From a virus (lineage: Duplodnaviria > Caudoviricetes): DNA of 64,000 nucleotides. A program made the translations under genes and the position numbers. Numbering within the stretch: the first letter of the stretch is position 1; each line of letters starts with the position of its first letter. This document shows, piece after piece, positions 39,307-56,500 of the stretch. The stretch is taken from positions 194,510 to 258,509 of the IMG/VR virus record IMGVR_UViG_3300033463_000005; one strand, written 5' to 3'. The notes under the pieces were generated by a model. The model did not search any database, had not been told where the DNA came from, and worked only from the letters and a program-made list of their open reading frames with translations.

Positions 39307-39309
39307 AAT

Positions 39310-39487: not shown

Positions 39488-39659
39488 ATACAAGTATGCA
39501 AGTGGTCATAAGCGGCTCACGTAAGTGAGAGGACACCTAATAAAAATACTCGTTCATGATTTCTCGTCCACTTATGTGGCGATGCAGTTGAATGGGTTAC
39601 TTCGATTACATATAATTGATCACATTATGTGTACGCGGGTTCGAATCCCGCCTTGTATA
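39488..39659 (+). ncRNA. tRNA scaffold carrying permuted Y-like module (copy 4)
   Basis: acceptor ATACAAG/CTTGTAT, D-loop AAGTGG, T arm GCGGG-TTCGAAT-CCCGC; insert ACTCGTTCA-TGATTTCTCG..CGATGCAG-TTGAATGGGT-TACTTC. Confidence 0.68.
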
Positions 39660-39673
39660 TATGAATATCTATG

Positions 39674-39809
39674 GGAGGATTAGCTCAGTTGGTAGAGCAC
39701 GAAACATAACTCGTTGCGTTATTCTCGGGACCCAAAGTGCCCGATGCAGTGTGATGAGTTACTTCGCATATGGCGCGCGTGGTCGTAGGTTCGAGTCCTA
39801 CATCCTCCG
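39674..39809 (+). ncRNA. tRNA scaffold carrying permuted Y-like module (copy 5)
   Basis: GGAGGAT/ATCCTCC acceptor, canonical D arm TAGCTCAGTTGGTAGAGC, T arm GTAGG-TTCGAGT-CCTAC; insert AACTCGTTGCG-TTATTCTCGGG..CCCGATGCAG-TGTGATGAGTT-ACTTC. Confidence 0.75.
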
Positions 39810-39827
39810 TTCTAAAATTTATAAGAT

Positions 39828-39900
39828 GTGACATTAGCTTAGTTGGTAAAGCAATCGCCTTTTAAGCGATAGAGCATGGGTTCAAGTCCCATATGTCACA
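39828..39900 (+). tRNA. tRNA-Lys(TTT)
   Basis: GTGACAT/ATGTCAC acceptor, ATCGC-CTTTTAA-GCGAT. Confidence 0.9.
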
Positions 39901-39910
39901 TTAATTATAA

Positions 39911-39986
39911 TCCCGCATAGTTCAGTCGGTAGAACGGCGGACTGTTAATCCGTATGTCGTAGGTTCAAGTCCTACTGCGGGAGCCA
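39911..39986 (+). tRNA. tRNA-Asn(GTT)
   Basis: TCCCGCA/TGCGGGA acceptor, GCGGA-CTGTTAA-TCCGT, encoded CCA. Confidence 0.93.
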
Positions 39987-40330
39987 TCGTCGTCGAAGGC
40001 ATTGTCTTCGCCGACAAAAAGAAGTTCCATCCGACCAAAATCGGGAAAAAGAATTAGCGCCAGAATTCTTGGGTTATTGTCTGCCGCGATATTTCCTGCC
40101 TGGGTGAAATAGCGTCCTAGGTGAAGAACTGATGAGTGCACGCATCGGCATGTGTAGTTCTCAGAAGAGGTCTTCAACACGTGCAACACGTAGAGAAATC
40201 TCCGGCCAAGGGTCCTGGTTTCCGGATCAAGATTTCTCAACCGCACCGAAATCCGCGGCGCGGTAGATTAGGGCCCAAAATAGTAGAGGTGTGTTGAAGC
40301 GGGTACTTTAATCAGTTCTCGTGGAGCACC
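39987..40330 (+). ncRNA. unknown GC-rich structured RNA
   Basis: nested helices AGAACTGA/TCAGTTCT, CTTCAACAC/GTGTTGAAG, GAGAAATCT/AGATTTCTC; no ORF. Confidence 0.55.
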
Positions 40331-40334
40331 TCGG

Positions 40335-40429
40335 GGTGTATTAGCTCAGTGGGTAGAGCGCCAGTTCGTGGTTAGTGACTATGTCCTCATGAACTGTAGA
40401 GGTCGCGGGTTCGAGCCCCGTATACACTC
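40335..40429 (+). ncRNA. tRNA-like RNA with expanded anticodon arm
   Basis: GGTGTAT/ATACACT acceptor, canonical D and T arms, 9-bp CAGTTCGTG/CATGAACTG stem with 17-nt loop. Confidence 0.62.
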
Positions 40430-40434
40430 TTTAT

Positions 40435-40514
40435 TCCCGCATAGCTCAGACGGTAAAGAGCATAGCGAGCGGCCGTTAACCGCTAGGTCGTAGGTTCAAG
40501 TCCTACTGCGGGAA
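40435..40514 (+). tRNA. atypical tRNA-Asn(GTT) (insertion after D arm, C33)
   Basis: same acceptor and T arm as the 39911 tRNA; AGCGG-CCGTTAA-CCGCT; ~6 extra nt between D and anticodon stems. Confidence 0.62.
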
Positions 40515-40527
40515 CCGTTTCAATTAG

Positions 40528-40552
40528 TGAGGGGACCTTCGGGTCCCCTCAT
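40528..40552 (+). terminator. intrinsic terminator
   Basis: TGAGGGGACC-TTCG-GGTCCCCTCA then T-rich tract. Confidence 0.75.
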
Positions 40553-40573
40553 AAAAATTTTTATTTTTTTTTT

Positions 40574-40593
40574 AAATATATATTATTATAGTG
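40574..40593 (+). promoter_or_regulatory. putative phage early promoter
   Basis: AAATATATATTATTATAGTG, near-identical to 41597-41616. Confidence 0.65.
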
Positions 40594-40642
40594 ATGCAAT
40601 ACAAGAATTTGCATCAGAAAAAATATTTAGGAGGAATATACT

Positions 40643-41545
40643 ATGTCAAAACCGCATAATGAAAAGAGAGTTGAATTTGTATCAGCTCGCATCAAAGATC
40701 TGCAGGATACAATTGCGGCACTGCAGAAAATTCTTGACAATCCTGACATAGGCGAAAAACGAGTAGTTGAAGAACTCGGGTTAGACTTTGCGAAATATCG
40801 TCGCTTCGTTTATGATCTTACCTGGATAAACAAAGCGACAGTATCCGCAAATGTAACTGATATGAAGCCAATCAAAAACTGTGTAACATGCTGCTGGCAA
40901 GAATTGTTGTGGTTGGATATATGTCGTTGCAACTCGGCTAATATAGCTGTGGCGCCAACAGACACAGTTGAAACGATTGACAACATCATTTCGGAATTGT
41001 CCGAAAGAGAGCAATTGGTTATACATATGCGATTCGAGGAAGGTTTGTTCCTCGATGAATGTGCTAAAAGGATTGGTGTAACTCGCGGACGTGCTGGTGA
41101 GATTTTGAAACGGGCAGAGACGAGAATCAAATACAAGTATGACAGACTCAGACTTGGCGATGGTAAATATGGAACCATCATCGGAATGCAACGCCGATTG
41201 GAAGACGATCTCGAGATCAAAATAAAAAGAGAGATCATCGAGAAGTTGGACTGCAGAATCGAATCTCTTGCAGCCCTAATAAAGGATGCGTATAATACTA
41301 TAAATGGCGCTGAAGAAAAACAAAAAGAATCGACTTCCTATGTGAGACTATTGCGTTATACCCCGCTTGAAAATCTGGAATTATCGGTAAGATCATATAA
41401 TTGTCTGAAGCGAGCGGGATACAAATGTCTCAATGATTTCTGTGACAAAACTCTCACCGATATTAAGAAAATAAGGAACATTGGTAGGAAATCATACGAA
41501 GAGATTGTTGAGAAGCTCACAGAAGTGGGCATATGTTTGGAATGA
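40643..41545 (+). CDS. sigma-70 region-4 HTH fused to RNA polymerase alpha-CTD
   Basis: LSEREQLVIHMRF..GLFLDECAKRIGVTRGRAGEI (sigma r4); PLENLELSVRSYNCLKRAG...KIRNIGRKSYEEI (alphaCTD). Confidence 0.85.
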   Translation: MSKPHNEKRVEFVSARIKDLQDTIAALQKILDNPDIGEKRVVEELGLDFAKYRRFVYDLTWINKATVSANVTDMKPIKNCVTCCWQELLWLDICRCNSANIAVAPTDTVETIDNIISELSEREQLVIHMRFEEGLFLDECAKRIGVTRGRAGEILKRAETRIKYKYDRLRLGDGKYGTIIGMQRRLEDDLEIKIKREIIEKLDCRIESLAALIKDAYNTINGAEEKQKESTSYVRLLRYTPLENLELSVRSYNCLKRAGYKCLNDFCDKTLTDIKKIRNIGRKSYEEIVEKLTEVGICLE

Positions 41546-41596
41546 TAAATAAATTATTTATAGGAGCCTTTATGGCTCCTATATTTTTTTATTTTT

Positions 41597-41616
41597 GAAT
41601 ATATATTATTATAGTG
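41597..41616 (+). promoter_or_regulatory. putative phage early promoter
   Basis: GAATATATATTATTATAGTG after TAGGAGCC-TTTAT-GGCTCCTA terminator. Confidence 0.65.
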
Positions 41617-41667
41617 ATGCAAGTAAAGAAGTTTGCATCATAAACATTTAATGAGGAGGAACACAAA

Positions 41668-42771
41668 ATGATATTTCTTAAAAACATGCCGGAAAGTGAC
41701 AAGCTTCTAAAATATCTAAAACCATTATCATCTCCACCAACAGACGTTGTATCATTTATAAATGAGAAAGAGATGACAAAGTTCTATGAACTTATGCTTC
41801 CATCTGACTGTATCATCGATACGGAAATAACTGGAGAAGAGATGCAAAGTTTGTTGAAACAATTTGGGTATGATGATTATGAGGGAGCAAGCCTCACAAA
41901 AAGAGAACGGCGAATTCCACTTGACTTTGTCGTTGCAAATACAATACCATTGAAAACCATCGAAATATCATGGTTCGATGAAGATGGGGATCAATATATA
42001 ACTCAAAAACTATGTTTGTCTGAAGATGTTACGGTGATGAGATTTGATGAATCTTTATTGGACACGGACCCTACCATGGTTTACACAATCATCGATCATA
42101 CAACATTATCGGATTTAAGACATTACATCAGTACAAAAACCAACGAAGATCTTGACACGATGCGATTTATCATTGGATCAATGGAAATCTCTCGCCACAT
42201 AAATGATGTCGGTGGATCTATGCGATGTTTAATCGTCGCATTCTATGATTCATTCGAAGTTGGTATTAATCCAATCATCGACAAAATTACCGCATATGAT
42301 AAAACACGAATGAATACAATATCTGATGGAAACATTTCTATGGAAGAAGCTGAAGTTATCACATTAGCGGCAACATTGTCTGAAGACATCACAGATGCAT
42401 TGGCTTCTTTTTACTCTGTGAATGTTGGATTGTTGAATCCGGTGATACAAGAAGTGTATCAGAAAAAGACTTCCAGGATTGCGCAAGAGAGTCACACATT
42501 CAAAAAGTATCCCGACAAAAAGAAGAAAATCAGGTATGTGAAAAAGCATCTAATAACGATGTTGGATGTTGAACACGAATTTGCAAAACGCGGATTTGTT
42601 AGAAAATCGATGATCTGGTATGTTACCGGTCATTGGCGTGAATACAAGTCTGGAAAGAGAATATTCATCCAAGGATATTGGAAAGGTGCATTGCGTCATT
42701 CCAAGGATGATGTTATCCCGAATCTTGAACCAAGAGAACGGGAACTGGTGATACCTGAAAAGAGCGAATAA
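41668..42771 (+). CDS. hypothetical phage protein
   Basis: 367-aa ORF, GAGGAGG RBS, C-terminal WYVTGHWR..KSGKRIFIQGYWKG motif. Confidence 0.78.
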   Translation: MIFLKNMPESDKLLKYLKPLSSPPTDVVSFINEKEMTKFYELMLPSDCIIDTEITGEEMQSLLKQFGYDDYEGASLTKRERRIPLDFVVANTIPLKTIEISWFDEDGDQYITQKLCLSEDVTVMRFDESLLDTDPTMVYTIIDHTTLSDLRHYISTKTNEDLDTMRFIIGSMEISRHINDVGGSMRCLIVAFYDSFEVGINPIIDKITAYDKTRMNTISDGNISMEEAEVITLAATLSEDITDALASFYSVNVGLLNPVIQEVYQKKTSRIAQESHTFKKYPDKKKKIRYVKKHLITMLDVEHEFAKRGFVRKSMIWYVTGHWREYKSGKRIFIQGYWKGALRHSKDDVIPNLEPRERELVIPEKSE

Positions 42772-42817
42772 ATGCTAATCATAAATAACTAGTGAAATTA
42801 AATGAAGGGAGAAGCAA

Positions 42818-43306
42818 ATGAAAAAGCCTAGTAAAGAAGATATGGTATTAATACCAATTATAATTTTCGGAGTTGTCATGATGATACTAACAATAATCTC
42901 AGATCATGGTAAATCCAAAACAAACGTAATTGAGGAAACAACTATCACTGAGTCAGATACAACAACGACAACAACGACAACAGAAGTGCCACAGACGACT
43001 ACAACAGAAAAGGTTACAACGACAACTACTACCACTACGACATCAACTGTTGTAACCACAACAACAACAGATGTTACAACAACGACATCAACCACGACAA
43101 CAACGGAAACATCCAAATTGATGACATATGATATTTTACAAAGAATCGAAATCATCAATATTTTATTGGATGAGACAAAATATGAGCGTTTAATTAAAAA
43201 GGATCCGTCCAAATTAACCAATGATGAACATTTGGAATTATACTATTATAATTCATTGGTGATGGAACGGAAACAACTTCGGGAATATCTCGATAAAAAC
43301 AAATAA
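42818..43306 (+). CDS. membrane-anchored Thr-rich protein
   Basis: N-terminal TM helix then ~55-aa poly-Thr linker. Confidence 0.75.
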   Translation: MKKPSKEDMVLIPIIIFGVVMMILTIISDHGKSKTNVIEETTITESDTTTTTTTTEVPQTTTTEKVTTTTTTTTTSTVVTTTTTDVTTTTSTTTTTETSKLMTYDILQRIEIINILLDETKYERLIKKDPSKLTNDEHLELYYYNSLVMERKQLREYLDKNK

Positions 43307-43319
43307 GGAGGAAGATGTA

Positions 43320-45953
43320 ATGGAAACTTCTCTTGATCTTATTGGCGTAGCACTCCGCTTTGTTAAATATGTAGATTTTGCGAATACTTTACATAGATAT
43401 GCAATATTTGAAATTGGTCGCGTTGGTGGCAATATAGAACTAAAAGCACTTGAAAAAGCATACGCATCTCAGTTATGTCAAATACCTGGTGACCTGACGA
43501 ATGGTATCCTACAACAAAAGCAAGTACATGATAACTCTGGATGTTATACGGTGCGCCTTTGTCTGTTCATTGGCAATATTTTGGACGGGGCAGACCTGAT
43601 CGAGAAGGGGAGCGATGCAACGAAAGTAACCATCACTTATGAAACCGGTAATATACGACCATCATTGAAAAGCATTAAACGCATGACCGCCTATGGTAGA
43701 CCGTGGTTTGAACGCTATCCTGTCGACTGGGATGCAACGGAAGAGACGGAAGCGTTCAAGAATAAACTCGAGGTACTTGCACACCTGTTCGAAGATTTTC
43801 CTCATGCAACAAGGTGTGCAAATATAACTCATAAAAACACTCTGGCGTTTCTTGCAGTACGGCTCGGCCATATTGTCTTTGACATTGGCCGAGGGCGATT
43901 CGTCACAATTGTCCAACAAAAACACGAACCTGAATTGCTAGACCTGATTCTTACTGACACATCAGTGAATCAAGTCTGGATTTTGAACCAGGTATCTTCA
44001 ATTGTTGAAGATGAAAAACCCTGGTGGTGGAGTTCAGGATTCCCATATGTCAGGGGTGAAGACATTTTGTCAGAAATTGCCGCATTGCAGATAGACATCG
44101 TAACATTTCTGGCAGAGCGCAAAGACCGCTATCAGAAACTTGCGGCTCATATTCTGGAAAATCATGAGGATTCTACGTCTGCTGACACAACAAAGACAGA
44201 GGAGGAAAATGCAATGAATTCCGAAAAAATCGAGTTCCCGGAAAGTGCCCCGAAGAAATGGGTGTCACTGTATGGTGATCTCCACGAACTTTTCTCAACG
44301 TGGTGTCGAAAGCGTGGAGCGACACTGGAAGAATTTGTGTGCTCACATGGCGGTTTTCCGGATTATCCACAAGGCATTTATTTCAATATATTGAGGAAAT
44401 TCTCCTCAGAGTCAAAAGATAAATTAAGGTTCACAGTTCATTATGACGATACGTTTAAAACTGTCGCAATCAGATTCTTTGCATACAACATTGAGTCTTT
44501 TCACGTAACCACTCCGAAAGAACGGCTTCAGATCAGAAGTATCACATTTTGTGAACCTATATTCAAAAGCTTTATTGGAGATAAACCCTCCGAGCATCAG
44601 ATTTATTGTTCACAAACAAATGGGGACCCAGAAAGCAAAACCAGTGCTGACTGGAAACCGGTTGACGTCATTCGGGAATATTTCGGTAAAGAATTTCTCG
44701 ATAAGATTGGTGAAATCTTTGCGAAATATGTTCCGAAGGAGACAGCCATCTTCGAACCCGGGATTATTCTGAAATGGGAACTCTGTTCGGAATACAAGTT
44801 CTTCAATGAACTTCGGACGGAGATCGACAGATACTTCAAACGCTGGTTTTCGGAAGATGTATCTGTGTCACAAATCATTTTCTCTGAAAACAAGGTTGCA
44901 TGGGAAATCCAAATGACCGATGATAGAAAATATCGGGCAGAGTTGACACATGACACAAATCGCAATACTGCGATTTGTGTCCATGACGATATACTGAGAT
45001 TCTTCAAACAGGGAACTGGATTCGTAGAAAGAAAACTCGCTATGTATGAGCTTGACTATGAATTCGGTGAAAGTTTCTATCACGGAATAAAACGTATCTA
45101 TGAATATATCCGTATGCAGGTATTAAACATTGTCAACGCAGAAACACAGAAATCGACATTGCCGAAATTGGCATTGTCAGAAGAAGAACCCTATATCTTG
45201 CCGAAAGAAGAATTCAAAAAGATAACCGAGGATCTTAAGAAACTCGCTGAATCAACATCTAAGGAGGAAAAGAAAATGAATGAAAAGAAGGAATTTAACG
45301 CATTCGGAGAAGTTCTGAAAAGACTTGCCGAAAGATTGACAACGGAGACACAGGAATCAAAAACTGATGATCCGATATTCCCGCATTTCTCAACATCCAA
45401 GGACGGAGTGAAACTTGTGACTATACCGTGGGATGTTTATCGTAATATGACGAACACTCAGTATGGTATGACCACTACAATAGTGAAAGATCGCGCTTCA
45501 ATGATAATGAATGCGTTCTGGAATCCTAAAACCGGTGTCGCAACTATTCTCTGGGCGGATGGTTCGAAGACCATGTCAAAGCCCATGGAAGGAACCACTC
45601 CGGATCCGGAAATCGGATTTGCCATCTGCATTGCAAAGAAGATAATGGGTGGAACCCAGAATAAATGGAGAAAGTGGTTGAAGAGCACCATCGAAGCATC
45701 TACAGCTTCCGCCAAGAAGAAAAGTGACAAGAGTCGTATCAAGCTGGAGAAACAGGCTCGTGCACGTCTTGATGCTCAGCAGATCACAGAACCGTCTGAT
45801 GTTCAACTTACAGAAATGATTGAGACAATCATCAAAGAAAATGCAACACGAAACAGACCAAATGTTTCTGTTAAGTTCATTGACCATTCGTATGACGTAC
45901 TTGATAAGCCGGCTCCTAAAAAGAGACCCGGCAGAAAGAAGAAAACCAACTAA
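43320..45953 (+). CDS. large hypothetical protein with conserved C-terminal phage domain
   Basis: 877-aa ORF; ATILWADGSKT...DPEIGFAICIAKK domain. Confidence 0.8.
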   Translation: METSLDLIGVALRFVKYVDFANTLHRYAIFEIGRVGGNIELKALEKAYASQLCQIPGDLTNGILQQKQVHDNSGCYTVRLCLFIGNILDGADLIEKGSDATKVTITYETGNIRPSLKSIKRMTAYGRPWFERYPVDWDATEETEAFKNKLEVLAHLFEDFPHATRCANITHKNTLAFLAVRLGHIVFDIGRGRFVTIVQQKHEPELLDLILTDTSVNQVWILNQVSSIVEDEKPWWWSSGFPYVRGEDILSEIAALQIDIVTFLAERKDRYQKLAAHILENHEDSTSADTTKTEEENAMNSEKIEFPESAPKKWVSLYGDLHELFSTWCRKRGATLEEFVCSHGGFPDYPQGIYFNILRKFSSESKDKLRFTVHYDDTFKTVAIRFFAYNIESFHVTTPKERLQIRSITFCEPIFKSFIGDKPSEHQIYCSQTNGDPESKTSADWKPVDVIREYFGKEFLDKIGEIFAKYVPKETAIFEPGIILKWELCSEYKFFNELRTEIDRYFKRWFSEDVSVSQIIFSENKVAWEIQMTDDRKYRAELTHDTNRNTAICVHDDILRFFKQGTGFVERKLAMYELDYEFGESFYHGIKRIYEYIRMQVLNIVNAETQKSTLPKLALSEEEPYILPKEEFKKITEDLKKLAESTSKEEKKMNEKKEFNAFGEVLKRLAERLTTETQESKTDDPIFPHFSTSKDGVKLVTIPWDVYRNMTNTQYGMTTTIVKDRASMIMNAFWNPKTGVATILWADGSKTMSKPMEGTTPDPEIGFAICIAKKIMGGTQNKWRKWLKSTIEASTASAKKKSDKSRIKLEKQARARLDAQQITEPSDVQLTEMIETIIKENATRNRPNVSVKFIDHSYDVLDKPAPKKRPGRKKKTN

Positions 45954-45966
45954 TTAGATGATAAAT

Positions 45967-45986
45967 GGGGGCGCATATGCGCCCCC
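45967..45986 (+). terminator. GC palindromic hairpin/terminator
   Basis: GGGGGCGC-ATAT-GCGCCCCC. Confidence 0.65.
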
Positions 45987-46024
45987 TGATTTTATCATTA
46001 ACAACATAATTATTTTAATTTTAA

Positions 46025-46044
46025 AAATATATATTATTAATGTG
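46025..46044 (+). promoter_or_regulatory. putative phage early promoter driving the RAMP-like gene
   Basis: AAATATATATTATTAATGTG followed by 5' hairpin AATAAAGAGG/CCTCTTTATT. Confidence 0.62.
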
Positions 46045-46271
46045 AAATAAAGAGGATAAACCACGCAGTTGGTAGTTCCTCTTTATTATGGTCATCTCCG
46101 ATAATCCCAGAAGTTATCGGTTATGATAGATTCGATGTGGGTAGTAGCAAATCAGATGACAATGATTTGTGAATCATACCACCGCGATATGCGCACGTGT
46201 CATTGTACCGTATCATCAATCTGCGGTATATAAATGGATTGAACATCATTTATAGGTTAGGAGAAAAAATT

Positions 46272-47099
46272 ATGGCAGCGAAGAAAGCAACTACTGAGAC
46301 AACTGCAACCACCGAGAAGAAGGGCGTGCTCAAGACATATGAACTGCCCGTTCACATCACATTCATGGAAGGTGTTCTGGGTACACTTCCGAACGACAAA
46401 GAGATTCTCAACAGCTTCATTACGTCGAAATCGGCAGATGCGGTTTCCCGCACGGATGAAATCGAAGCAGTCGGTATCGAAGAAGTTATTGAGAAGGGAA
46501 AGACGGTATTTCCGCGTGATGCGGAAGGCAGACCCTTCATCTATGACTATCAGTTGAAGGGGTTCTTCAAAGAGAAGTGCTCCTTCTTGAAGAACATCAA
46601 CGGAACAGAGTCGGCGAAGATGACGGCGTTTAAGAAGAAGATTGATGGTCTCTTCTTCATCAAAGACCGCCGGAATCCGATCACAATCACTGACGGTCTG
46701 AGCATTGAATCCTGCCAGAGACCGCTGCGTGCAGAAACCGCACAGGGTCCGAGAGTTTCTCTTGCGAATTCGGAAGAGATTCCTGTCGGATCTGAATGCG
46801 ATTTCACGGTTCTTGTCTTTGACAAATCCCATATTGATATTGTCAAAGAATGGCTGGAGTACGGTATCGTACACGGCACGGGTCAGTGGAGAAATTCCGG
46901 TAAGGGACGTTTCATCTGCGAATTCGGCGAAGTCTCCGAAGGCGAAATGACCTATGCCGAGCACATTAAGCGTGCAAAGGCGGCCATCAAAGCCGAAGTT
47001 GCCCAGAAGATTCTGGAGCAGCAGGAAAAAGAAGCCGAGAAGAAACGTCAGCGGGAAGCTGCTGAAGCAGAAAAGGCCGCAAAGAATGCCGGTAAATAA
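46272..47099 (+). CDS. stand-alone RAMP/Cas7-like RNA-binding protein
   Basis: beta1-Gly VHITFMEGVLG; PFIYDYQLKGFFKE (Cas7/Csm3 P.I....LKG motif); thumb QRPLRAETAQGPRVSL; EEIPVGSECDFTV; Gly-rich loop YGIVHGTGQWRNSGKGRF; AGGAG RBS; strong codon bias. Confidence 0.82.
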   Translation: MAAKKATTETTATTEKKGVLKTYELPVHITFMEGVLGTLPNDKEILNSFITSKSADAVSRTDEIEAVGIEEVIEKGKTVFPRDAEGRPFIYDYQLKGFFKEKCSFLKNINGTESAKMTAFKKKIDGLFFIKDRRNPITITDGLSIESCQRPLRAETAQGPRVSLANSEEIPVGSECDFTVLVFDKSHIDIVKEWLEYGIVHGTGQWRNSGKGRFICEFGEVSEGEMTYAEHIKRAKAAIKAEVAQKILEQQEKEAEKKRQREAAEAEKAAKNAGK

Positions 47100-47177
47100 A
47101 TCATAAATCGTAAAGCCCCGTATTTTATGTATGATACGGGGCTTTACATTCATATACACTTGAAAGGAGGAATATGA

Positions 47178-49418
47178 ATGCCCGATAAAAATGATTGTTT
47201 TTCTTCGGTTATGAAAGAAATAAACAACCCATACAAAGCATGTGTGGATAAAATCTACACAATGATCGAGGACACAATTTGGTTGTCTTTAAACCGGGAG
47301 AAAGCACTGTATTCAATGTACTACCCTGATGAAACATCAACTGGTAGAAAGACTGAATTTACCATGAGAAAGAGTGATAAACAATTCGGTCTATATCGGA
47401 CAAATGATTATGTCGCTGGCATAATCGATGTATGGAATGGAAGTAAGGTTCATATTCCATACACGTATACCGTAAAACCGGATGACCATATTTCCATCCA
47501 AAGATGGAACACATATGATCATGAAAATGGCATTTCAAAATGCCACATTCAGTGTTTAATCAATGATGTGAATGCCAAATTATTGGAGCATTTCAGTAAA
47601 TTGTTGATTAAACCTGCACGGTGTACAACATTCGATGATGTATGGAATACAGTCATTTCATATATCAGTAAGTATTGTTCGCGGTCGATCACATGGATGA
47701 AACTGGAATCGACCAAGAATGACGAACGTACCCGAATCACAATTTCGGAACAGTATCGGAATGTTGACAAGCACATTGATGTCATGACAATCAGTGTCAT
47801 TGATCGAGATCTGCTTATGACAATTCCGGCTGTTGAAGTTGTCAGCACATATGGAGCAGAATATTACAAACAGATTCTGCAGTTTGCTGGTCAACTATCT
47901 CGGATTCTTTGTGACTGTCAAGATGAAGGGATTATCAAGAAACCGGATGCCGACATCAATATGACGATGGGGATAATTCGGATGTGTTGTGTGGTGCCTG
48001 GATGTAGCTGGATTACGATCACACAAAATCCAAAACTTGCAATTGTAAAATGTGGCGGTGTCGAAATGCTTCGACACGATATAATTGATAGGGACAATAT
48101 TATCACAACAATCACAGAAGAAGCATTTTGCGATGAAATACATCTTGGAACGGTATATCGGTTGATCAATCATTTGATATGTTCATTTGGATATACTCAT
48201 ATTAAATTTGACATGTCCACTGTCAACTATCAAAAGATATATGAGTTCATTCATACGTATTTATATCAGCATCTATCGAATTCCGATCTTTGCAAGTATT
48301 GTGCAGTATGTGATACGGATATGTCTACAATTATATTTGATGAACGTGATATTCCAAAAAAGGAATTATTGCGAATCCAATATACAGATATCGGATTGAA
48401 ACTGATTCTTTGTTCGGATTTAAAAACACCTCTCCGAGTAAATACAAATTGGAAGATCAAACACATACTTCCAATTTTGAGAGAATTCTGGGAATATTCC
48501 AAATATCCAGAACCAGTTGTCACCAGTGAAGAAATCGGTTATCCCGATGATATAACGGAGGAAAAGAAAATGAAAACTACAATCACAAAGGAATTCATGC
48601 AAAAAGAATTCCTGAAACTGTGCGGAATTATTCAGAATGAAATTCAACCGATATTGAATGATGTCGCCCTGCTGGGTGGCGATTGGGCTAATGCTGGTAC
48701 TGCGGGATTGATGTGTTGGAGTGTGTATCATGCCGCGTCGTATCGGAATCGGAATATCGGTGCCCGCCTATTAAATGATGATACTTTGGCAGTGTGGAGT
48801 GGTGAAAAACACAACCATGTCATAGAAATCAGATTTTCAACAGACTATACACATGGCTTTTATATTCGGATTGATGATCTGAAACGTCATCAAATGCATG
48901 AACCGATCACTGCTAATTTCTTCGAGACTTTATATGACAAATGCATTAATGCGTTTGACGACGATCTGTGGGAAGAAATTGGTTATCCAAATGATATAAA
49001 GCCTGATATTGATGAATCCGATGACATGTATAAACTATGGCAGTACTTCGGTAAGACCTATTTACGTGATCCAAAACTAAAAACATTTCTTCCATATGCA
49101 CCATCCTTTGAAAATGTAGATCGTCTGGTATTCAATGGACCGGCGACAATTGTCTATTGGAAGGATGGCACAATGACAGTTGTCAAAGCTACAAAGGGTG
49201 AGACAATTGATCCCGAAAAGGGATTCGCAATGGCAGCACTCAAGAAGGTAAATGGCAATACTGCCAATTACATGAGAAAGCTGTCAAAGCTTTTTAAGAA
49301 AGCAGAAATCATCGAACCCACAAGGAAGAAGAAGGCCAAGAAGAAGAACACCGATATTGTAACAACTGCCAAAACACCGAAGAAAACAACCAAGCAGAAG
49401 GTTGAGCCAAAAGGGTGA
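47178..49418 (+). CDS. large hypothetical protein with conserved C-terminal phage domain
   Basis: 746-aa ORF; FNGPATIVYWKDGTMTVVK...DPEKGFAMAALKK domain; internal repeat EEIGYP(D/N)DI. Confidence 0.8.
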   Translation: MPDKNDCFSSVMKEINNPYKACVDKIYTMIEDTIWLSLNREKALYSMYYPDETSTGRKTEFTMRKSDKQFGLYRTNDYVAGIIDVWNGSKVHIPYTYTVKPDDHISIQRWNTYDHENGISKCHIQCLINDVNAKLLEHFSKLLIKPARCTTFDDVWNTVISYISKYCSRSITWMKLESTKNDERTRITISEQYRNVDKHIDVMTISVIDRDLLMTIPAVEVVSTYGAEYYKQILQFAGQLSRILCDCQDEGIIKKPDADINMTMGIIRMCCVVPGCSWITITQNPKLAIVKCGGVEMLRHDIIDRDNIITTITEEAFCDEIHLGTVYRLINHLICSFGYTHIKFDMSTVNYQKIYEFIHTYLYQHLSNSDLCKYCAVCDTDMSTIIFDERDIPKKELLRIQYTDIGLKLILCSDLKTPLRVNTNWKIKHILPILREFWEYSKYPEPVVTSEEIGYPDDITEEKKMKTTITKEFMQKEFLKLCGIIQNEIQPILNDVALLGGDWANAGTAGLMCWSVYHAASYRNRNIGARLLNDDTLAVWSGEKHNHVIEIRFSTDYTHGFYIRIDDLKRHQMHEPITANFFETLYDKCINAFDDDLWEEIGYPNDIKPDIDESDDMYKLWQYFGKTYLRDPKLKTFLPYAPSFENVDRLVFNGPATIVYWKDGTMTVVKATKGETIDPEKGFAMAALKKVNGNTANYMRKLSKLFKKAEIIEPTRKKKAKKKNTDIVTTAKTPKKTTKQKVEPKG

Positions 49419-49479
49419 ACGAACCAATATTTTAGAAGAGTTTCAAAATGGGTGCCATATGGCACCCATTCTCTTCGTT

Positions 49480-50590
49480 GTAAAGTATAAGTATTGGTCT
49501 TGTATGAATCTGTGCTGATATGTACTGGTAGAGTAGGGTTATGTGGCGAGGTGTAGATGATTCGTCGTGTAACGTCTAGGTTTGGTATGCCATGATCATG
49601 TCATCCGCGTCCAGGTACGGTCAGGCTTCACATGTTAACGTGATACAATGCATCGGTGAAGTCCTGTAATGTTTAGCTGTGATGATTGTAATGGATTCGT
49701 CATGCAACGCCAAGGCAAAGTGTTATGATGATTAGTGACAGACGGTGTCGGTGAAGTGCGGCGAGGAAGCGTATGATTTCGCATGGGTTTGACAAGGTGG
49801 AGGAATGTGGAACAACGCGTTGGTTTTGTTTGGTTTAGTAATGCAAAGGCAACGTGGGGCTGGGTTTGGTTTGATTCGGTTTGGTAACGGCCTAGATAGG
49901 TTATGTCTCGTATGTCGGTGTTCCGGTGCAGTCCAGCAGAGCAGTGTCAGCACTGTCCTGGTATCGTGTGGCAACTCGAAGTTACGATATGATTCGCGAT
50001 TGTAAGGCAAGGTATGATGATGCTTTGGCAAAGAGAAGCGATGTCGGATCTCGTGGGGTTTTGTGCCGGTGAGGCGTCGTTTAGTTTCACACCGTGTCGG
50101 TACTGAAAAGTTAGACTATGTAGCGGCATAGTCATACGATGTTTGGGCTGTGTTTATCAGTGTGCTGGTTCTGCAAAGTAAAGTGGTGTCCTGTATGGTG
50201 TTGGTGATGTGCAGAATAGTGATGTTTCGGCGTTGTAAGGCTGTGCGGAACATCGTGTTGGTACAGTGTCGAAGGCTTGTGTTGTGTCGGTGTGGTGTTG
50301 TGACATCTCATATCGTAGCGTGGGGTATGGTGTATCCTAGTTTGTATAGGCACCGTACTCTCCCGTTTCATACCGCGAAGTTATGTGATGGCGCCGTAAT
50401 GTCAAACTACGTGGCGTCCGGTCCTGGCAAAGCTCACTCTTGTGCAGTAAAGGTTTGGCACTGTCATATTGAGTGCTGTGCTGGCAACGTACCATTCTGC
50501 ATCATATCGTGTTGGTATGGTGACGATGCGTTGCGTACAGTTGCACAAGGTTACGCCGAGGTAAATCATGGCCTAATTATGCAATGACCG
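49480..50590 (+). repeat. non-coding pentamer-periodic array 2
   Basis: e.g. 49856-49885 GGGGC TGGGT TTGGT TTGAT TCGGT TTGGT; 50287-50331 TCGGT GTGGT GTTGT GACAT CTCAT ATCGT AGCGT GGGGT ATGGT; GGYRAAGY-like anchors. Confidence 0.82.
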
Positions 50591-50646
50591 CAAACCAACA
50601 AAATATTTCGCAGAGTATCACAACTATAAGATACTCTGCGAAATAT

Positions 50647-50728
50647 GTCTGCATGGCGAAATTGGCAGACGCGTAGGATTTAGGTTCCTATGTCGAAAGA
50701 CGTCTCGGTTCAAATCCGAGTGCAGACA
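50647..50728 (+). tRNA. tRNA-Leu(TAG)
   Basis: GTCTGCA/TGCAGAC acceptor, TAGGA-TTTAGGT-TCCTA, long variable arm. Confidence 0.9.
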
Positions 50729-50735
50729 CTCATAT

Positions 50736-50768
50736 GCCGCTGTGGCGAAATTGGTAGCACATGACAGA
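50736..50768 (+). pseudogene. 5' half of interrupted tRNA-Leu(TAA)
   Basis: GCCGCTG-TGGCGAAATTGGTAG...ACAGA; pairs with the 3' half at 51417-51467. Confidence 0.75.
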
Positions 50769-50782
50769 AAGGAGGTGATAAC

Positions 50783-51328
50783 GTGAATAATTATGATGAT
50801 ACAAATTTATATGCAATTTTTGATGCATTTATGAAATATGGTGATTTTTATCCACATGAGATACCAGGATTTCCTGGCTATTATATCAATAGATTTGGAA
50901 TTATGTTTGATAAAAATAGAAATGAAATTGAACCATACCAATATCCAAATCAATATAAAATGGTATATTTAACTGATCAATACGGGAATCATCGTGTTTT
51001 TGGAATCCATCAACTTGTTGCAATGACATTTGATCCAGATTGGTTTCCAGGTTGTATTGTCCATCATATAGATGGAAACAAATACAACAATAATGATTGG
51101 AATTTAGAATGTATGAGTCGTGCACAACATACATCAATGCATAATCCATTACGTTATATTGATAAAATCGAGACATGTGATATTTGTGGTAAAAAATTTA
51201 TATGGAAAGCAAGCACTCAACAATATTATTATTCCGATATAAAGCGTGGTGTTCATCGTATTAAAACATGCTCACCAAGTTGTCAGTCATATGCTGGTCG
51301 AATGACACAACTAGGTCGAGCATATTAA
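50783..51328 (+). CDS. HNH homing endonuclease (NUMOD4-HNH)
   Basis: IPGFPGYYINRFG, IHQLVAMTF, VHHIDGNKYNNNDWNLE, C-terminal Zn motif. Confidence 0.9.
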   Translation: MNNYDDTNLYAIFDAFMKYGDFYPHEIPGFPGYYINRFGIMFDKNRNEIEPYQYPNQYKMVYLTDQYGNHRVFGIHQLVAMTFDPDWFPGCIVHHIDGNKYNNNDWNLECMSRAQHTSMHNPLRYIDKIETCDICGKKFIWKASTQQYYYSDIKRGVHRIKTCSPSCQSYAGRMTQLGRAY

Positions 51329-51334
51329 ATATTT

Positions 51335-51416
51335 GGCCCCGTATTCGAATAGGCAGAGAAGACGAACTTAAAATTCGTTGTCGTAAGACGTGTGGGTTCA
51401 AGTCCCATCGGGGCTA
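51335..51416 (+). tRNA. tRNA-Leu(TAA)
   Basis: GGCCCCG/CGGGGCT acceptor, ACGAA-CTTAAAA-TTCGT, variable arm. Confidence 0.85.
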
Positions 51417-51467
51417 TTAAAATCTGTTGCCGGATACGGCGTACCGGTTCAAATCCGGTCAGCGGCA
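51417..51467 (+). pseudogene. 3' half of interrupted tRNA-Leu(TAA)
   Basis: TTAAAA-TCTGT-variable arm-ACCGG-TTCAAAT-CCGGT-CAGCGGC-A. Confidence 0.75.
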
Positions 51468-51475
51468 TTCTCATT

Positions 51476-51509
51476 GGGCTTGTAGCGCAGTCGGTTAGCA
51501 CTACCGCCT
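51476..51509 (+). pseudogene. 5' half of interrupted tRNA (Ile-like)
   Basis: GGGCTTG-TAGCGCAGTCGGTTAGCAC-T-ACCGC-CT; pairs with 52122-52158. Confidence 0.7.
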
Positions 51510-51525
51510 ATATAGCATACTCAAT

Positions 51526-51598
51526 GGGTCGATAGCATAAAGGTAAGTGCCCCTGTCTCATAAACAGTATTATCCGGGTTCGAATCCCGGTCGACCCA
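51526..51598 (+). tRNA. tRNA-Met/Ile2(CAT)
   Basis: GGGTCGA/TCGACCC acceptor, CTGT-CTCATAA-ACAG, CCGGG-TTCGAAT-CCCGG. Confidence 0.82.
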
Positions 51599-51632
51599 TA
51601 CTAATTATTTCTAATATAATGGAGGTTACATC

Positions 51633-52109
51633 ATGAATAATTTAGACACAAACGTGACCGGATTACTAACAGAAATGCAAGTTCAACGAGAATTCATAAA
51701 ACGCGGTTTTGGAGTTTCTGTTCCATTAAACCCATCTGAGCGATATGACTTAATCGTTGACGCATTTGGTGGATTATTCAAAGTCCAAGTAAAAACAGCA
51801 ATTGATCTCGAATCAGATGATGGTTTTATGATATATACATCATCTGTTCACAAAAAACATGGTGTGTGGGACAGAAAATGTTATGACGAAAATGAGGTTG
51901 ATTTGTTTGCAACCGTACATAATGACACTGTTTACGTTATCCCATATCCCGATGCCGGAACAATGTCACAGATAACACTTAGAACAAAACCAACCAAAAA
52001 TGGTCAAGAGATTAATATTCATTATGCTGATCACTATGAATTGGATAACGTAATAGGCAGATGGAATAATTTAACTGATTCTAATAAGCAACAACTGCTT
52101 ATTGAATAA
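51633..52109 (+). CDS. PD-(D/E)XK homing-type endonuclease
   Basis: G..TE...FIKRG..VSVP....RYDLIVD......VQVKT...Y...EVDLFA pattern. Confidence 0.85.
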   Translation: MNNLDTNVTGLLTEMQVQREFIKRGFGVSVPLNPSERYDLIVDAFGGLFKVQVKTAIDLESDDGFMIYTSSVHKKHGVWDRKCYDENEVDLFATVHNDTVYVIPYPDAGTMSQITLRTKPTKNGQEINIHYADHYELDNVIGRWNNLTDSNKQQLLIE

Positions 52110-52121
52110 GGGCTCGCTGGA

Positions 52122-52158
52122 AAGCGGTTGGTCCTGGGTTCGAGTCCCAGCGAGCCCA
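52122..52158 (+). pseudogene. 3' half of interrupted tRNA (Ile-like)
   Basis: AA-GCGGT-TGGTC-CTGGG-TTCGAGT-CCCAG-CGAGCCC-A. Confidence 0.7.
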
Positions 52159-52210
52159 TCATGTAATATATTTTCAACGGTATATTACATATGAATATAG
52201 AAATGAATAT

Positions 52211-52296
52211 GCCTGAATGTCCGAGCGGTCGAAGGAGGCGGTCTTGAAAACCGTTAGACGAAAGTCTCGTGGGTTCGAATCCTACTTCAGGCGCCA
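52211..52296 (+). tRNA. tRNA-Ser(TGA)
   Basis: GCCTGAA/TTCAGGC acceptor, GCGGT-CTTGAAA-ACCGT, variable arm, G73, CCA. Confidence 0.92.
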
Positions 52297-52664
52297 CTTG
52301 CGGGTATTCATTTCGTTGTCCTTTCAAAATTAAACCTTATAATCCGTGTGGTTTACAAGTGGAGATTTCTCCATGGAGGTTTACACACCTCGAACTTTCC
52401 CGTATGTGCACATACGGTTGATATACCAAAACCGGTTGGTTGATACCATAGATGATCACTATGGTGCGGTATTATTAATAAACATTGAATCCGCTTAATA
52501 TCCCACAAACCATCGATGTGACTCGGAAACGAAAGGATCCATACAAGAACTTTATGAACATATTGTGCCGTTCATGAAGAGGTTAATCCGGACACGACTT
52601 CTATCGATAATTGCCCCATAGTTTTCGGTCTATGGGGAATCAATATAAACATGGAGGAATGAAT

Positions 52665-52853
52665 ATGACAACAAATTCAACAAAAACAACCGTCAAAGGT
52701 GGAGTATCGTTTCTCGAATTACTACAGCTTGCATTGATTGTTTTGAAGTTGTGTAAAATCATTACATGGAGTTGGTGGTGGGTGTTAGCACCGACTTGGA
52801 TTCCAATTCTGATTCTGATATTGGTTGTAATCGTTGTTATGAAACAAAAATGA
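52665..52853 (+). CDS. small membrane protein
   Basis: GGVSFLELLQLALIVLKLCKIITWSWWWVLAPTWIP motif, GGAGG RBS. Confidence 0.75.
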   Translation: MTTNSTKTTVKGGVSFLELLQLALIVLKLCKIITWSWWWVLAPTWIPILILILVVIVVMKQK

Positions 52854-52974
52854 TAATTGATGGTGGTGGTCATCCTGTGACGGTACAAATGTAGACCTTG
52901 CGTACGAAGTCATCTACTGTATTCGTGACAAAGTATGTGTGATATGGGTGTATTCAATTCCATCACCACATTAT

Positions 52975-53047
52975 GCTGGATTAGCTCAGTTGGTAGAGCG
53001 GCTGATTTGTAATCAGCAGGTCGGGGGTTCAAGTCCGTCATCCAGCT
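52975..53047 (+). tRNA. tRNA-Thr(TGT)
   Basis: GCTGGAT/ATCCAGC acceptor, GCTGA-TTTGTAA-TCAGC. Confidence 0.92.
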
Positions 53048-53051
53048 TCAA

Positions 53052-53373
53052 CCTGTGTTGAGCATATCTCAACCAAACGATCTAATGGTATGGGTTACAG
53101 TTTCAACGAGGTTACCATATCGAAAAAAAAAGGGTTCCAGGATGGGGTCCCTGGAAGCTGTATTCAGTCGCGAATGGTACGGCCGATGTTTAGGGAGGCA
53201 AGCATACAAACCTTCCACTCGTGGTGAAAGAGACGGGTTTCACTCATGGGGATTGATCACCCTGTGTAGATAGCTTTGATCATCCTATATAAGCCGGCTT
53301 GACGGGGTCGTAGTGTATCAGATGCTCGCGGTGAGGGAACAACCGCCAGCCAATCAACCAGATACATCCGTCA
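53052..53373 (+). ncRNA. unknown structured RNA between tRNA-Thr and tRNA-Gln
   Basis: GC-rich, multiple helices (GTTGAG/CTCAAC, TTCCAGG/CCTGGAA, TGACGG/CCGTCA, TGTATC/GATACA); no credible ORF. Confidence 0.45.
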
Positions 53374-53381
53374 TTTTTGGG

Positions 53382-53456
53382 TGGGGTATCGCCAAGTGGA
53401 AAGGCGCCAGACTTTGACTCTGGTATTCGTAGGTTCAAATCCTGCTACCCCAACCA
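53382..53456 (+). tRNA. tRNA-Gln(TTG)
   Basis: TGGGGTA/TACCCCA acceptor, CCAGA-CTTTGAC-TCTGG, CCA. Confidence 0.92.
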
Positions 53457-53502
53457 ATCACATGGGTTTGGCATACCATGTGGTACTTCCTGTAAATGAG
53501 TT

Positions 53503-53524
53503 GTGGGGCGCATATGCGCCCCAC
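53503..53524. terminator. GC palindromic hairpin between convergent units
   Basis: GTGGGGCGC-ATAT-GCGCCCCAC. Confidence 0.65.
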
Positions 53525-53542
53525 TCTCATCACTCTTATTTT

Positions 53543-56500
53543 TTATACATTATTCCAGTTACCGGTCTCCCGATTATAAATCTTCAATTCTGTTTCATCT
53601 TCTTGTGTTTTGTCGTTGATGATCAATGTTTTGTAATTCACGATTTTACCCATATCATTTTCAACATTCCCAATATTCACCAAATCGGATCCACGTAAAA
53701 TTTGCATTTTTGTTGGTGTGAATTCATTTTGGTTTTCATCAATTCCGCGCAGTTTGAATTGATGTGTTTCCGGGAACACCAATCTCCATGAACCGTGTGG
53801 TTGATGTGTTGGGATGGAACCGATTATGAGATCTTGCATTGGGACATATTTTGATGTGTATGGTTGTGTTTGTGTCGTAACATCAAATGGTGAATTAACC
53901 ATGATATTGAATAACAATCTTCCATCAGAATCAACCAATGTTACAGTACCATGTGTTGATGTTGTGATTTCGACATCACTCCATGTGAGTGTTTCTTTTT
54001 TGATGTATAATTCACGTGTATCCGCGTTCATATAATACTTCTCATGTGTTGTTGATGTTGGTTCAAACATCCAAACCATCGGGCCAAGTTGGTCCACACA
54101 CCACGTGACGGTTGTTTGTGGATTTGTATGAACGTATCTGGTATCTACATATTCGGATGGAAGCAATGATGTGTCTGATTGTGACATCAGATTATTTAAT
54201 GAACGACGAATGATTCCACATGTGAATTGTTTATCCGCCATATCATTCGACAACCACTTCCATACCAGATATGAATCATACTGGTCCAACTTTGCATCTT
54301 CAACTGCTTTGATGACACCGTTCGTATTGTGCTGTTCTGCAGTCAATGTAACAAATCCATGACAATAGAATTTATTAATGTCAACCGGCGTTCTCACATC
54401 ATCCGGAATGAGCAACGGGATGGTATCTTGTGAAATGACATTGATTGAAGTTGCGGATGCAAATGATTTGATATTGATCGTTGTGTTGTCTTGTAATTTT
54501 GATACAGTGAATTCTCTGACAGATGGCAGGAAGGAATTGATATATGCATCACGAGGTGTCACATCGCCATCTTTTCGGATTGTGTCGGAATTATTTGCAT
54601 ATGCAATTTGTTCGATCTTCTCCCATGTACCAACAGCACCAGAAACACGATATTGATATAACCAAATACCATCCGATTCTTTTACCAATGCACATAATCC
54701 TTTGACAACATTTCCTTTGACTGGCAACAGTTGATCAAAGTTTTGAATCATAAATGACAATTTCAAGCCACGTCCGGTTGAATTACCAATCGGAGATGTG
54801 CCATATGGGACTGTCATGCCATAATTCGGATCATACAAATCAAAGTTCGACAAATTGATTTGTGTATGTGCATCAGATGGTGCAATTGTAACATCTGTGA
54901 CACCACCATTTTCATCTACCGCATTCACAATATAATTGAATGCAAAACCACCGATGACAACAATACCGACATCTGAAACGACATAATCAGTACCATGGTT
55001 TGAGATTTGATGTAATGTGACATTTTGTGGATCGACAAATGGATTCAAATTTGAAAGCTCTCTGAAATCATTATGCGCATACAAATCAACACGTTGCAGA
55101 TTTTCAAATGAATCAAAGATATATGCATTCGATTGTGTTTCCGAATCTTCCGTATAAATCGGATCACCATTCACATCGACATGTGTTGGACGAACCCATT
55201 TATCACGTGTACCATTATACAGATAATCCTTGTCGTCTGCGGTAAAACTCGCATATGACCGAATATATTTTTTGTCAACAACCGATGTTGGTGCCAATCC
55301 GGAAATATTCGTTAACTGCATAACGGATGTTGGTATATCACAAATACGAGCCAATGTTCTTGCAGGTTTTGGGAATTCTGCAGTTGCATTGTTCTCATAT
55401 TTAATATCATCATTCGATAACAGATAAACACGTCCGATTGACAGCGCGTTTGTCTCATCTGTTCCTGGATACAAACGATCTTTACCAGGATCGAAAATCA
55501 ATCCGGCGATTTGTCGTGTCGATTGATCTTCTGGTTGATATGTCGGGGTATTATGCAACGCATAAATTGACATATGTTGAGCAACACCGTTGGCTTCATC
55601 ATTCTGAATCCATTCAGGTAATCCTTCCAGATTCTGAATATCATGTGGATATCTTGGTTCACCTTCATCTGTATGAGAAGATTTCATCTGCATACCGACA
55701 AAACCCGCATCTGTTGTATTCGGTTCAAACGCGATTGATTGATCCAATTGAATATCAAATGCCGGTTTCAATGGATTGTGATATTCATACAAATTTGATT
55801 CGAATGTTTCAACCGGAATGATATACATTCCGGAATCCGCATCATATGTCCAACCAACATTCTGCGTCATCGTGATAATGTTATCACCATTCATGTTGAT
55901 TCCGATATTATGCGTATCATCCGTTGAATAGAATTCGATTGTTCCGATTGGCTTTGTAAAATCGGTATTATTTTGATCAAATGTGCCGGACACCGGTGCA
56001 CAACGAATCACCCAATCTGTCAAATCTCCGGATGGAACAGACCCCAATCTTGTACCAGTGCATGGATACACATTCACTTGATATCGGGTTTTATTGCCTG
56101 CATGTCCAATCTCCAATAATCTGGAATGATCATACAAATGATCCGAATCTTGTGATGGATCGTACATGTCGATATTTGTGAATGTTACGGATGGTCCTTG
56201 ATTTGTTGCATTCGATGTAAACCAGAAGAATGGTAAACCGATCATATTTGAATCTGCAAATAGATCTGAATACATGATCAATTCATTGGATGCATATTTT
56301 CGTTGAATTGGAAATGGTTGTAAATTCGATTCCGCTGGATAATAATATCTTGGATCCAATGATGACTGATGTGAATCCGGATCAGTCCAATCCAATCCCG
56401 CTTGTTCTCCATCATCAAATTCATCGATGTCATTGATACACCACAAACGCGGTGGTGTATTGGTTTTATACCATTTATATGAATACACGTTTGATGAATC

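Follow-up and report, generated by a model that had tools for sequence, protein, structure and literature searches.

A putative homing cassette in a phage tRNA-Leu(UAA) gene combines an HNH endonuclease gene with a spare tRNA-Leu(UAA) gene

Results

In the genome record of an uncultured virus (IMG/VR IMGVR_UViG_3300033463_000005; 258.5 kb, 96% complete, 38.8% G+C), a resident tRNA-Leu(UAA) gene is split by a 648 nt insert that holds an HNH endonuclease gene and a second, complete tRNA-Leu(UAA) gene. The 64,000 nt stretch analysed here (positions 194,510–258,509, the last 64 kb of the record) is called the window, and coordinates are positions within it, with all features of the tRNA locus on the plus strand. 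The insert (50769–51416) is probably a mobile cassette of a nuclease plus a spare tRNA, that is, a free-standing homing-endonuclease element without an intron, seated in the anticodon loop of the resident gene, on its 5′ side.

The two halves of the resident gene are readily recognised. The 5′ remnant (50736–50768; GCCGCTGTGGCGAAATTGGTAGCACATGACAGA, GCCGCTG...ACAGA), identified from the sequence and by alignment to intact alleles, belongs to a class II tRNA, of which it has the acceptor 5′ strand, D arm and anticodon stem 5′ strand, while the 3′ remnant (51417–51467), which starts with TTAAAATCTGT and ends with CAGCGGCA / CCGGTTCAAATCCGGTCAGCGGCA, runs from U33 through the anticodon-stem 3′ strand, the variable arm and the T arm to the acceptor 3′ strand and A73. 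The acceptor stem pairs at 7/7 and the anticodon stem at 5/5 positions. An A stands at either end of the insert, and when the halves were joined in silico with a single such A retained, ARAGORN called a tRNA-Leu(taa). An earlier sequence-only reading had proposed a split tRNA-Leu(UAA) with complementary acceptor and anticodon stems, and had placed an HNH open reading frame (ORF) and an intact, divergent tRNA-Leu(UAA) between the halves; both proposals were borne out.

Alignment to the intact alleles of two related contigs (L012 and L013) placed the borders of the insert, which is almost completely filled by its two genes. It consists of a 14 nt leader (50769–50782), in which a Shine-Dalgarno sequence (AAGGAGG, 50769–50775) begins exactly at the junction, followed by a 546 nt ORF (50783–51328, 181 aa, GTG start), a 6 nt spacer and an 82 nt tRNA gene (51335–51416), leaving only 20 nt outside the ORF and the tRNA. 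The inner tRNA has a long variable arm and A73, was detected by both ARAGORN (51334–51417) and Rfam (51335–51416, 52.5 bits), and its discriminator A directly abuts the 3′ remnant. It is the sole tRNA-Leu(UAA) that ARAGORN found in the 258 kb phage genome, where TTA makes up 18% of the leucine codons in the long ORFs. Only 56/87 positions are identical between the inner tRNA and the rejoined resident allele, and both strands of the anticodon stem differ.

The 181 aa protein was identified through Pfam, PHROG and Protein Data Bank (PDB) matches. It matched Pfam HNH_3 (3.6e-9, 36.6 bits versus a curated cut-off of 24.8) and several PHROG HNH endonuclease families, its closest solved structure is I-HmuI of phage SPO1 (PDB 1u3e, 4.9e-6, residues 26–113), and its C-terminus carries a Cys4 treble-clef zinc finger (Pfam zf_Tbcl). 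In an alignment of six homologues with 52–96% identity, the residues H94, H95, N99, N103, N107 and H116 are invariant, as are the four cysteines. Comparison with a copy of 96% identity in a further relative (L005) gave a dN/dS of 0.20, a value that rests on 18 substitutions only and suggests that the gene is under purifying selection. Because of the HNH_3 domain, the I-HmuI match, the invariant catalytic and Cys4 residues and the low dN/dS, the protein looks like a working enzyme. A second HNH_3 gene is present elsewhere in the phage genome, outside the window (G000:C1:9276-9404, 32.5 bits, in a 258 aa open frame).

The relatives that allow the locus to be compared came from a large protein collection, where L012 (85% identity) and L013 (75%) were reached via a neighbouring 746 aa protein. 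At the same locus both have tRNA-Leu(UAG), the spacer TCATAT, an intact tRNA-Leu(UAA), 8 nt of spacer and an uninterrupted tRNA(CAU), and nuclease genes are absent. The upstream flank, which in the window includes the neighbouring tRNA-Leu(UAG) (50647–50729; ARAGORN, and Rfam at 53.7 bits), is identical between the window, L012 and L013 at 164–165 of 165 nt, and over the 172 nt downstream of tRNA(CAU) the window and L013 are identical at 171/173 positions. The L013 allele has the acceptor stem of the window halves (GCCGCTG/CAGCGGC), and the L012 allele has their anticodon arm (CATGACAGA-C-TTAAAATCTGTTG). An intact GCCGCTG tRNA-Leu had been anticipated in related phages without the cassette, and it was thus found at the exact position. 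Since the anticodon loop of both intact alleles reads CTTAAAA and C32 is missing at the window junction, the insert stands in the place of C32.

Other searches gave no such alleles. The region gave no megablast match among 50,697 phage records, tblastn of the HNH protein against the same records gave only distant matches (27–51% identity), and IMG/VR scans seeded with the 746 aa neighbour, the HNH protein and the PD-(D/E)XK protein described below found no relatives. Blastn of the rejoined tRNA gave only 76–79% matches, to tRNA-Leu genes of Pseudomonas, Rhizobium and Synechococcus phages. An exact-pattern scan with the 3′ remnant led to an unrelated 180 kb phage (L003) with an intact tRNA-Leu(UAA) that has the acceptor and T arm in common, but this was rejected as a true empty site.

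The cassette itself was found again in L005, an independent 913 nt assembly from a near-identical phage, with a 5′ remnant, the HNH gene, an identical inner tRNA (0/82 differences) and a 3′ remnant, so that the locus shows presence/absence polymorphism, with the cassette in the window and L005 and absent from L012 and L013. The nested arrangement is not due to chance, as intact homologous alleles occupy the same locus in L012 and L013 and the nesting recurs in L005. An assembly artefact was ruled out, because the same nested designs occur in independent assemblies, L005 for this cassette and L016 for the neighbouring one.

The remnants in the two cassette-bearing genomes are mosaics of the resident alleles. 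Of the 26 differences between the window and L005, five are among nt 1–17 of the 5′ remnant (Fisher p 0.007, 33 nt remnant versus ORF), and decay was rejected as their origin because the substitutions match the resident L012 allele, to which the L005 5′ remnant is identical at 32/33 positions. In L005, then, the 5′ remnant is of the L012 type (GCTGGTG) and the 3′ remnant of the window type (CAGCGGC), so that the two strands of the acceptor stem do not match (one G-G and one G-U), and the pairing of the anticodon stem is broken by an additional G-to-C change in the 3′ remnant. The 5′ remnant in the window is itself chimeric, with nt 1–17 of the GCCGCTG allele type and nt 18–33 L012-like, and its D stem is disrupted (GCG versus CAT, one Watson-Crick pair only, with CAT being the partner of the L012-type ATG). 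As the remnants are mosaics, the rejoined halves of neither the window nor L005 would be expected to give a sound tRNA, even if spliced. Mosaics of this sort, whose crossovers lie a few dozen bases away from the insertion point, fit the product expected of homing with co-conversion tracts of variable length; co-converted flanks are represented by the hybrid L005 remnants, the chimeric 5′ remnant of the window and the old flank that accompanies the neighbouring cassette in L016.

The resident tRNA genes are the variable part of an otherwise conserved region. Across the two tRNA genes (window 50736–51467 and 51476–52158, L012 4623–4790 and L013 8266–8433), the tRNA-Leu(UAA) alleles, with that of the window rejoined, are 65–79% identical between flanks of 99–100% identity, and the tRNA(CAU) alleles are 75–92% identical between the same flanks. 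The simplest reading of this variability is repeated replacement driven by the nucleases; an alternative would be pressure from host anticodon nucleases (PMC10264068).

The position of the insert in an anticodon loop raises the question of an intron. With permissive thresholds, Rfam gave no intron family at E<=1 in 36000–55000, nor at E<=5 in the loci of five relatives. A group I intron was rejected: there is no Rfam match, there is no space for a ribozyme, and the junction has an A before the 5′ splice position and an A as last base of the insert, where group I introns have U(-1) and G(omega). The sequence-only reading had seen no group I intron core, which agrees with the Rfam result and with an insert taken up by a Shine-Dalgarno site, an ORF and a tRNA. 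A more general form of the idea is that the 648 nt are a true intervening sequence, removed from the transcript by an unrecognised ribozyme, or by tRNA-processing nucleases and an RNA ligase, with both the outer and the inner tRNA-Leu being made. The window halves are indeed colinear, with perfect acceptor and anticodon stems, and as the 3′ end of the inner tRNA abuts the outer U33, its 3′ processing would free the outer 3′ half; in addition, 'enigmatic introns', one of them maybe encoding a tRNA, have been described in tRNAs of Lak megaphages (PMC6784885). Against this stand the lack of an intron family, of ribozyme space outside the ORF and of suitable junction bases (A/A), the missing C32 and chimeric D stem in the window, and the mismatched acceptor and broken anticodon stem in L005. 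Furthermore, a search of the 96%-complete phage genome found no RtcB, Rnl2-type ligase or tRNA-splicing endonuclease (tRNA_int_endo), and we regard an intervening sequence as highly improbable.

More distant homologues of the HNH protein were present in L004 (70% identity), L006 (59%), L007 (55%) and L011 (52%), which together with the window and L005 allowed six HNH loci to be compared. The HNH gene is linked to a tRNA-Leu gene in all six, and in each case the HNH start is immediately preceded by a tRNA-Leu 5′ remnant. This remnant ends after tRNA position 31 (window, L005, L004 and L011), 32 (L007) or 27 (L006), and the break is thus at 31/32 in five of the six although the stems differ (ACAGA, AGAGA, CTTGA, AGGGA). 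A complete tRNA-Leu follows the HNH gene directly in 5/6 loci, and in L004, L006 and L011 this tRNA-Leu (UAA or CAA) comes straight after the HNH gene with no 3′ remnant. The exception is L007, which has both remnants, with CCA encoded on the 3′ half, and no complete inner tRNA. As the distant homologues all keep HNH with tRNA-Leu, the partnership is old, and the full nesting seen in the window is one of several states.

Two of these loci show further features. In L007 (4891–5590), where the tRNA-Leu(UAA) is split, the first ~50 nt of the insert (…AATTCCACCACCCGAGCACCA) come close to being the reverse complement of the 5′ half; they end in ACCA and may represent a hairpin or an inner tRNA that has decayed. 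In L006 the cassette has hit a CAA tRNA-Leu gene and carries a CAA spare, and the 5′ remnant upstream of its HNH gene (L006 2069–2096) equals the first 28 nt of a window tRNA-Leu(CAA) (37497–37571), which is only 75 nt long and lacks a long variable arm.

The constant presence of the 5′ remnant could also have another cause, namely that it is kept as a homology arm, or as a leader or processing signal for expression of the HNH gene, which would be compatible with a mobile cassette. In 6/6 loci the remnant immediately precedes the Shine-Dalgarno site of the HNH gene, even in those without a 3′ remnant, and the remnant/AAGGAG junction is common to the window and L011, although their proteins are only 52% identical. 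The remnant sequences are not conserved across the loci, however, and the L005 remnant is simply the resident L012-type allele. Sequestration of the Shine-Dalgarno sequence by the 5′ remnant was likewise unsupported, with no stable predicted fold at the site (z +1.2), and a remnant retained for such a service seems improbable.

The next tRNA gene of the cluster is interrupted in a comparable manner. Comparison with empty sites delimited a second cassette of 612 nt (51510–52121) that replaces the anticodon CAT of a resident tRNA(CAU), between a 5′ remnant (51476–51509) with one mismatch in 34 nt (G24A) and a 3′ remnant (52122–52158) with one mismatch in 37 nt (position 67) versus the intact L013 tRNA(CAU). 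The cassette contains a complete tRNA(CAU) (51526–51599) and a PD-(D/E)XK endonuclease gene (51633–52109; Pfam PDDEXK_5, 1.9e-24). The best solved relative of this protein is PDB 2ost (1.4e-4), which we take to be I-Ssp6803I, the homing enzyme of a cyanobacterial tRNA-fMet intron. In L005, L012 and L013 the site is empty and the tRNA(CAU) intact, with the L013 allele having the same ACCGC/GCGGT anticodon stem, while in L016 a 91% identical cassette is present in a different tRNA allele, genome and gene neighbourhood, and its old right flank (GGGTTCACTGGAAAGCGGTTAGTCC) came along. Three distant contigs with a PD-(D/E)XK gene (L017, L018 and L019) all have a tRNA(CAU) directly upstream of the nuclease gene, and in L017, the only one of which the downstream sequence was read, a 3′ remnant follows directly after it. 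The arrangement mirrors that of the HNH cassette, with an unrelated nuclease fold.

The second cassette ends with a 12 nt tail (GGGCTCGCTGGA) straight after the nuclease stop codon. The tail starts with GGGCTCG, complementary to the acceptor 3′ strand of the tRNA(CAU) 3′ remnant, giving a tRNA-like minihelix of acceptor stem and T arm (52110–52158), and the region has weak Rfam mascRNA and tmRNA-like matches (27.3 and 21.1 bits). In L016 (691–740) the cassette copy has this tail too, and the minihelix may serve the nuclease mRNA as a processing signal of the RNase P type.

All 12 tRNA genes that ARAGORN found in the whole genome are located inside the window, and the Leu locus belongs to a tight cluster of them (50647–53456). 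Perfect hairpins bracket this region, one of 17 bp at 50603–50646, which ends one base before tRNA-Leu(UAG), and one of ~12 bp at 52160–52193, which closely follows the tRNA(CAU) remnant. Each hairpin is conserved in L012, L013 and L005, and they may be processing or termination signals.

Several other unusual sequences lie near the tRNA clusters. A module GATGCAG..GGTTACTTC recurs, often beside T-arm-like sequences, in the window (37313–39809), L006 (172–2040), L011 (5740–5872) and L007 (6260–7000), and a 136 nt 'tRNA' (39674–39809) carries it in place of the anticodon loop. The module gave weak Rfam YrlA (Y RNA-like) matches, at 25.8 bits in the window and 30.5 bits in L011, and in L006 a gene with a weak Pfam TROVE (Ro60-type) match lies just ahead of both the modules and the HNH cassette. 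ARAGORN assigned no identity to two tRNA-like genes with abnormal anticodon arms, one of 97 nt (40334–40430) having a long stem and loop, and the other (40435–40516) being an Asn-like copy, with extra bases after the D arm and C33. Stretches that are rich in G+T and free of ORFs adjoin the tRNA clusters at a conserved position (window 37700–38850 and 49480–50590, L004 4100–4880 and L006 2830–3304).

Discussion

We propose that the HNH cassette spreads by homing into an intact tRNA gene. During mixed infection, the HNH enzyme would nick or cut the tRNA-Leu(UAA) gene of cassette-free relatives near position 31/32, and a genome with the cassette would be the template for repair of the break, the tRNA remnants and sequences farther out acting as homology arms. 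Such repair would bring in both the HNH gene and the spare tRNA gene, and the length of the co-converted tract would vary. The spare gene would escape cutting because its D and anticodon stems differ throughout from those of the target, and would keep UUA decoding in place, a logic that resembles, by analogy, that of a cleave-and-rescue element. The PD-(D/E)XK and tRNA(CAU) cassette would act likewise on the next tRNA gene.

The sequence-only reading had already suggested an intron-less homing cassette, which is supported by the empty sites in L012 and L013, the lack of an intron, the dN/dS of the HNH gene, the linkage to tRNA-Leu in all six loci and the mosaicism of the flanks. Its further suggestion, that the cassette destroys its target tRNA and compensates with an isoacceptor, holds in part: the resident gene is split and the spare is the only tRNA-Leu(UAA), but phage tRNA genes are accessory and L007 has a split gene without a complete spare.

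Several of our observations weigh against the proposal. The junction is imperfect in that C32 is lost, few substitutions underlie the dN/dS, and ordinary recombination in tRNA arrays also shapes L004, L006 and L011, which lack a 3′ remnant. In L007 the split gene and the HNH gene are accompanied by no complete spare, so rescue is not obligatory, and the accessory nature of phage tRNA genes weakens the logic of an essential gene. Part of this would suit a passive recombination scar, in which the HNH enzyme targets a site elsewhere or outside tRNA genes, and the remnants are by-products of illegitimate or homeologous recombination in tRNA arrays. The lost C32 and the loci with a 5′ remnant only are what such a scar might leave, the tRNA alleles at the locus are highly mosaic, and the gene order in L004 differs. 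Nevertheless, the HNH gene remains linked to tRNA-Leu in 6/6 loci across 52–96% identity, and the break falls at tRNA position 31/32 in five loci with different stems. An unrelated nuclease of the I-Ssp6803I family occupies the equivalent place in the neighbouring tRNA gene, and both flanks are otherwise 99–100% identical. A scar of this kind is unlikely.

With homing as the preferred reading, the cassette would be a new form of intronless homing, documented by alleles that occur in nature in the empty, filled and recombinant state. The usual view is that homing endonucleases persist in important genes via self-splicing introns or inteins, or harmlessly between genes; an element that sits inside a gene and pays the cost with a spare copy would follow a third strategy and be nature's equivalent of the engineered cleave-and-rescue drives. 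With less assurance, we lean towards the wider view that phage tRNA clusters hold a natural 'cleave-and-rescue' class of selfish elements, in which unrelated nucleases (HNH and PD-(D/E)XK) are welded to a cut-resistant copy of the tRNA gene they attack and would invade structural RNA genes without a ribozyme. On that view, repeated homing and target escape would make these genes the most variable spots of genomes that are identical otherwise, and the tRNA-encoding 'introns' of megaphages would be the same thing.

The cassettes offer a way to explain the tRNA halves and the 'tRNA-in-tRNA introns' of phages with large genomes, and predict that annotation of phage tRNA genes will miscall such loci. 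They also suggest that selfish nucleases drive the turnover of phage tRNA genes, besides codon usage or host anticodon nucleases. Finally, they provide two compact nucleases with presumably long, tRNA-gene-specific recognition sites, together with putative pairs of sensitive and resistant alleles (L012 or L013 versus the spare).

Comparison with known systems

A literature search found no description of a cassette of a nuclease plus a spare tRNA, and the nearest characterised system is SegB of phage T4. The segB nuclease gene lies in the phage tRNA cluster, its product cuts inside tRNA genes of relatives without it, and when segB homes, the T4 tRNA genes next to it are transferred as well and those of the recipient are excluded (PMC2330249). 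SegF, SegG and MobE are other free-standing homing endonucleases that home without an intron (PMC2330249, PMC2988022). Shared with SegB are the location of a nuclease gene in a phage tRNA cluster, the presence/absence polymorphism and the co-conversion of flanks. SegB, however, is a GIY-YIG enzyme encoded between tRNA genes, which recognises the T-psi-C region, replaces a 1.25 kb block and leaves no remnants, whereas the window cassette has an HNH gene inside a tRNA gene, at the anticodon loop, and keeps both halves of its victim around a spare with the same anticodon.

Group I introns are known from tRNA anticodon loops, in the tRNA-Leu(UAA) of cyanobacteria and plastids and in a tRNA-fMet where the intron encodes I-Ssp6803I (PMC3984707). 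The types of gene (tRNA-Leu(UAA) and tRNA(CAU)) and the location in the anticodon loop are the same, and the nuclease of the neighbouring cassette belongs to the I-Ssp6803I family. The cassette differs from these introns in that it has no ribozyme, and in that the damage would be repaired at the level of DNA, by a second gene copy, rather than of RNA, by splicing. The window insertion also follows nt 31/32, and is not within or after the anticodon.

Tentatively, the tRNA 'introns' of Lak megaphages may be the same phenomenon. These 'enigmatic introns', one of which was predicted to encode a tRNA, are present in some variants and absent from others (Devoto et al. 2019, PMC6784885). As in the window, a phage tRNA gene is interrupted by an insert that holds a tRNA, but they were published as possible introns, with no mechanism and no nuclease, and they are set beside the window cassette by their description only.

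The nearest structural relative of the HNH protein, I-HmuI, is the HNH homing endonuclease of the DNA polymerase intron of Bacillus phage SPO1 (PDB 1u3e). It differs from the window protein in being encoded by an intron, and the latter has a C-terminal Cys4 zinc finger instead of the C-terminal DNA-binding modules of I-HmuI. The I-HmuI enzyme nicks one strand.

Two further kinds of element follow a related plan. Integrative elements that use tRNA genes as insertion sites bring a copy of the 3′ end by which the gene is made whole again, and synthetic 'Cleave and Rescue' (ClvR) gene drives are engineered to destroy a gene and carry a replacement. Like the window cassette, both occupy or destroy a useful gene and bring a replacement for it. 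Integrative elements, however, use integrases and replace part of a tRNA gene, whereas the window cassette combines a homing nuclease with a whole, natural tRNA gene.

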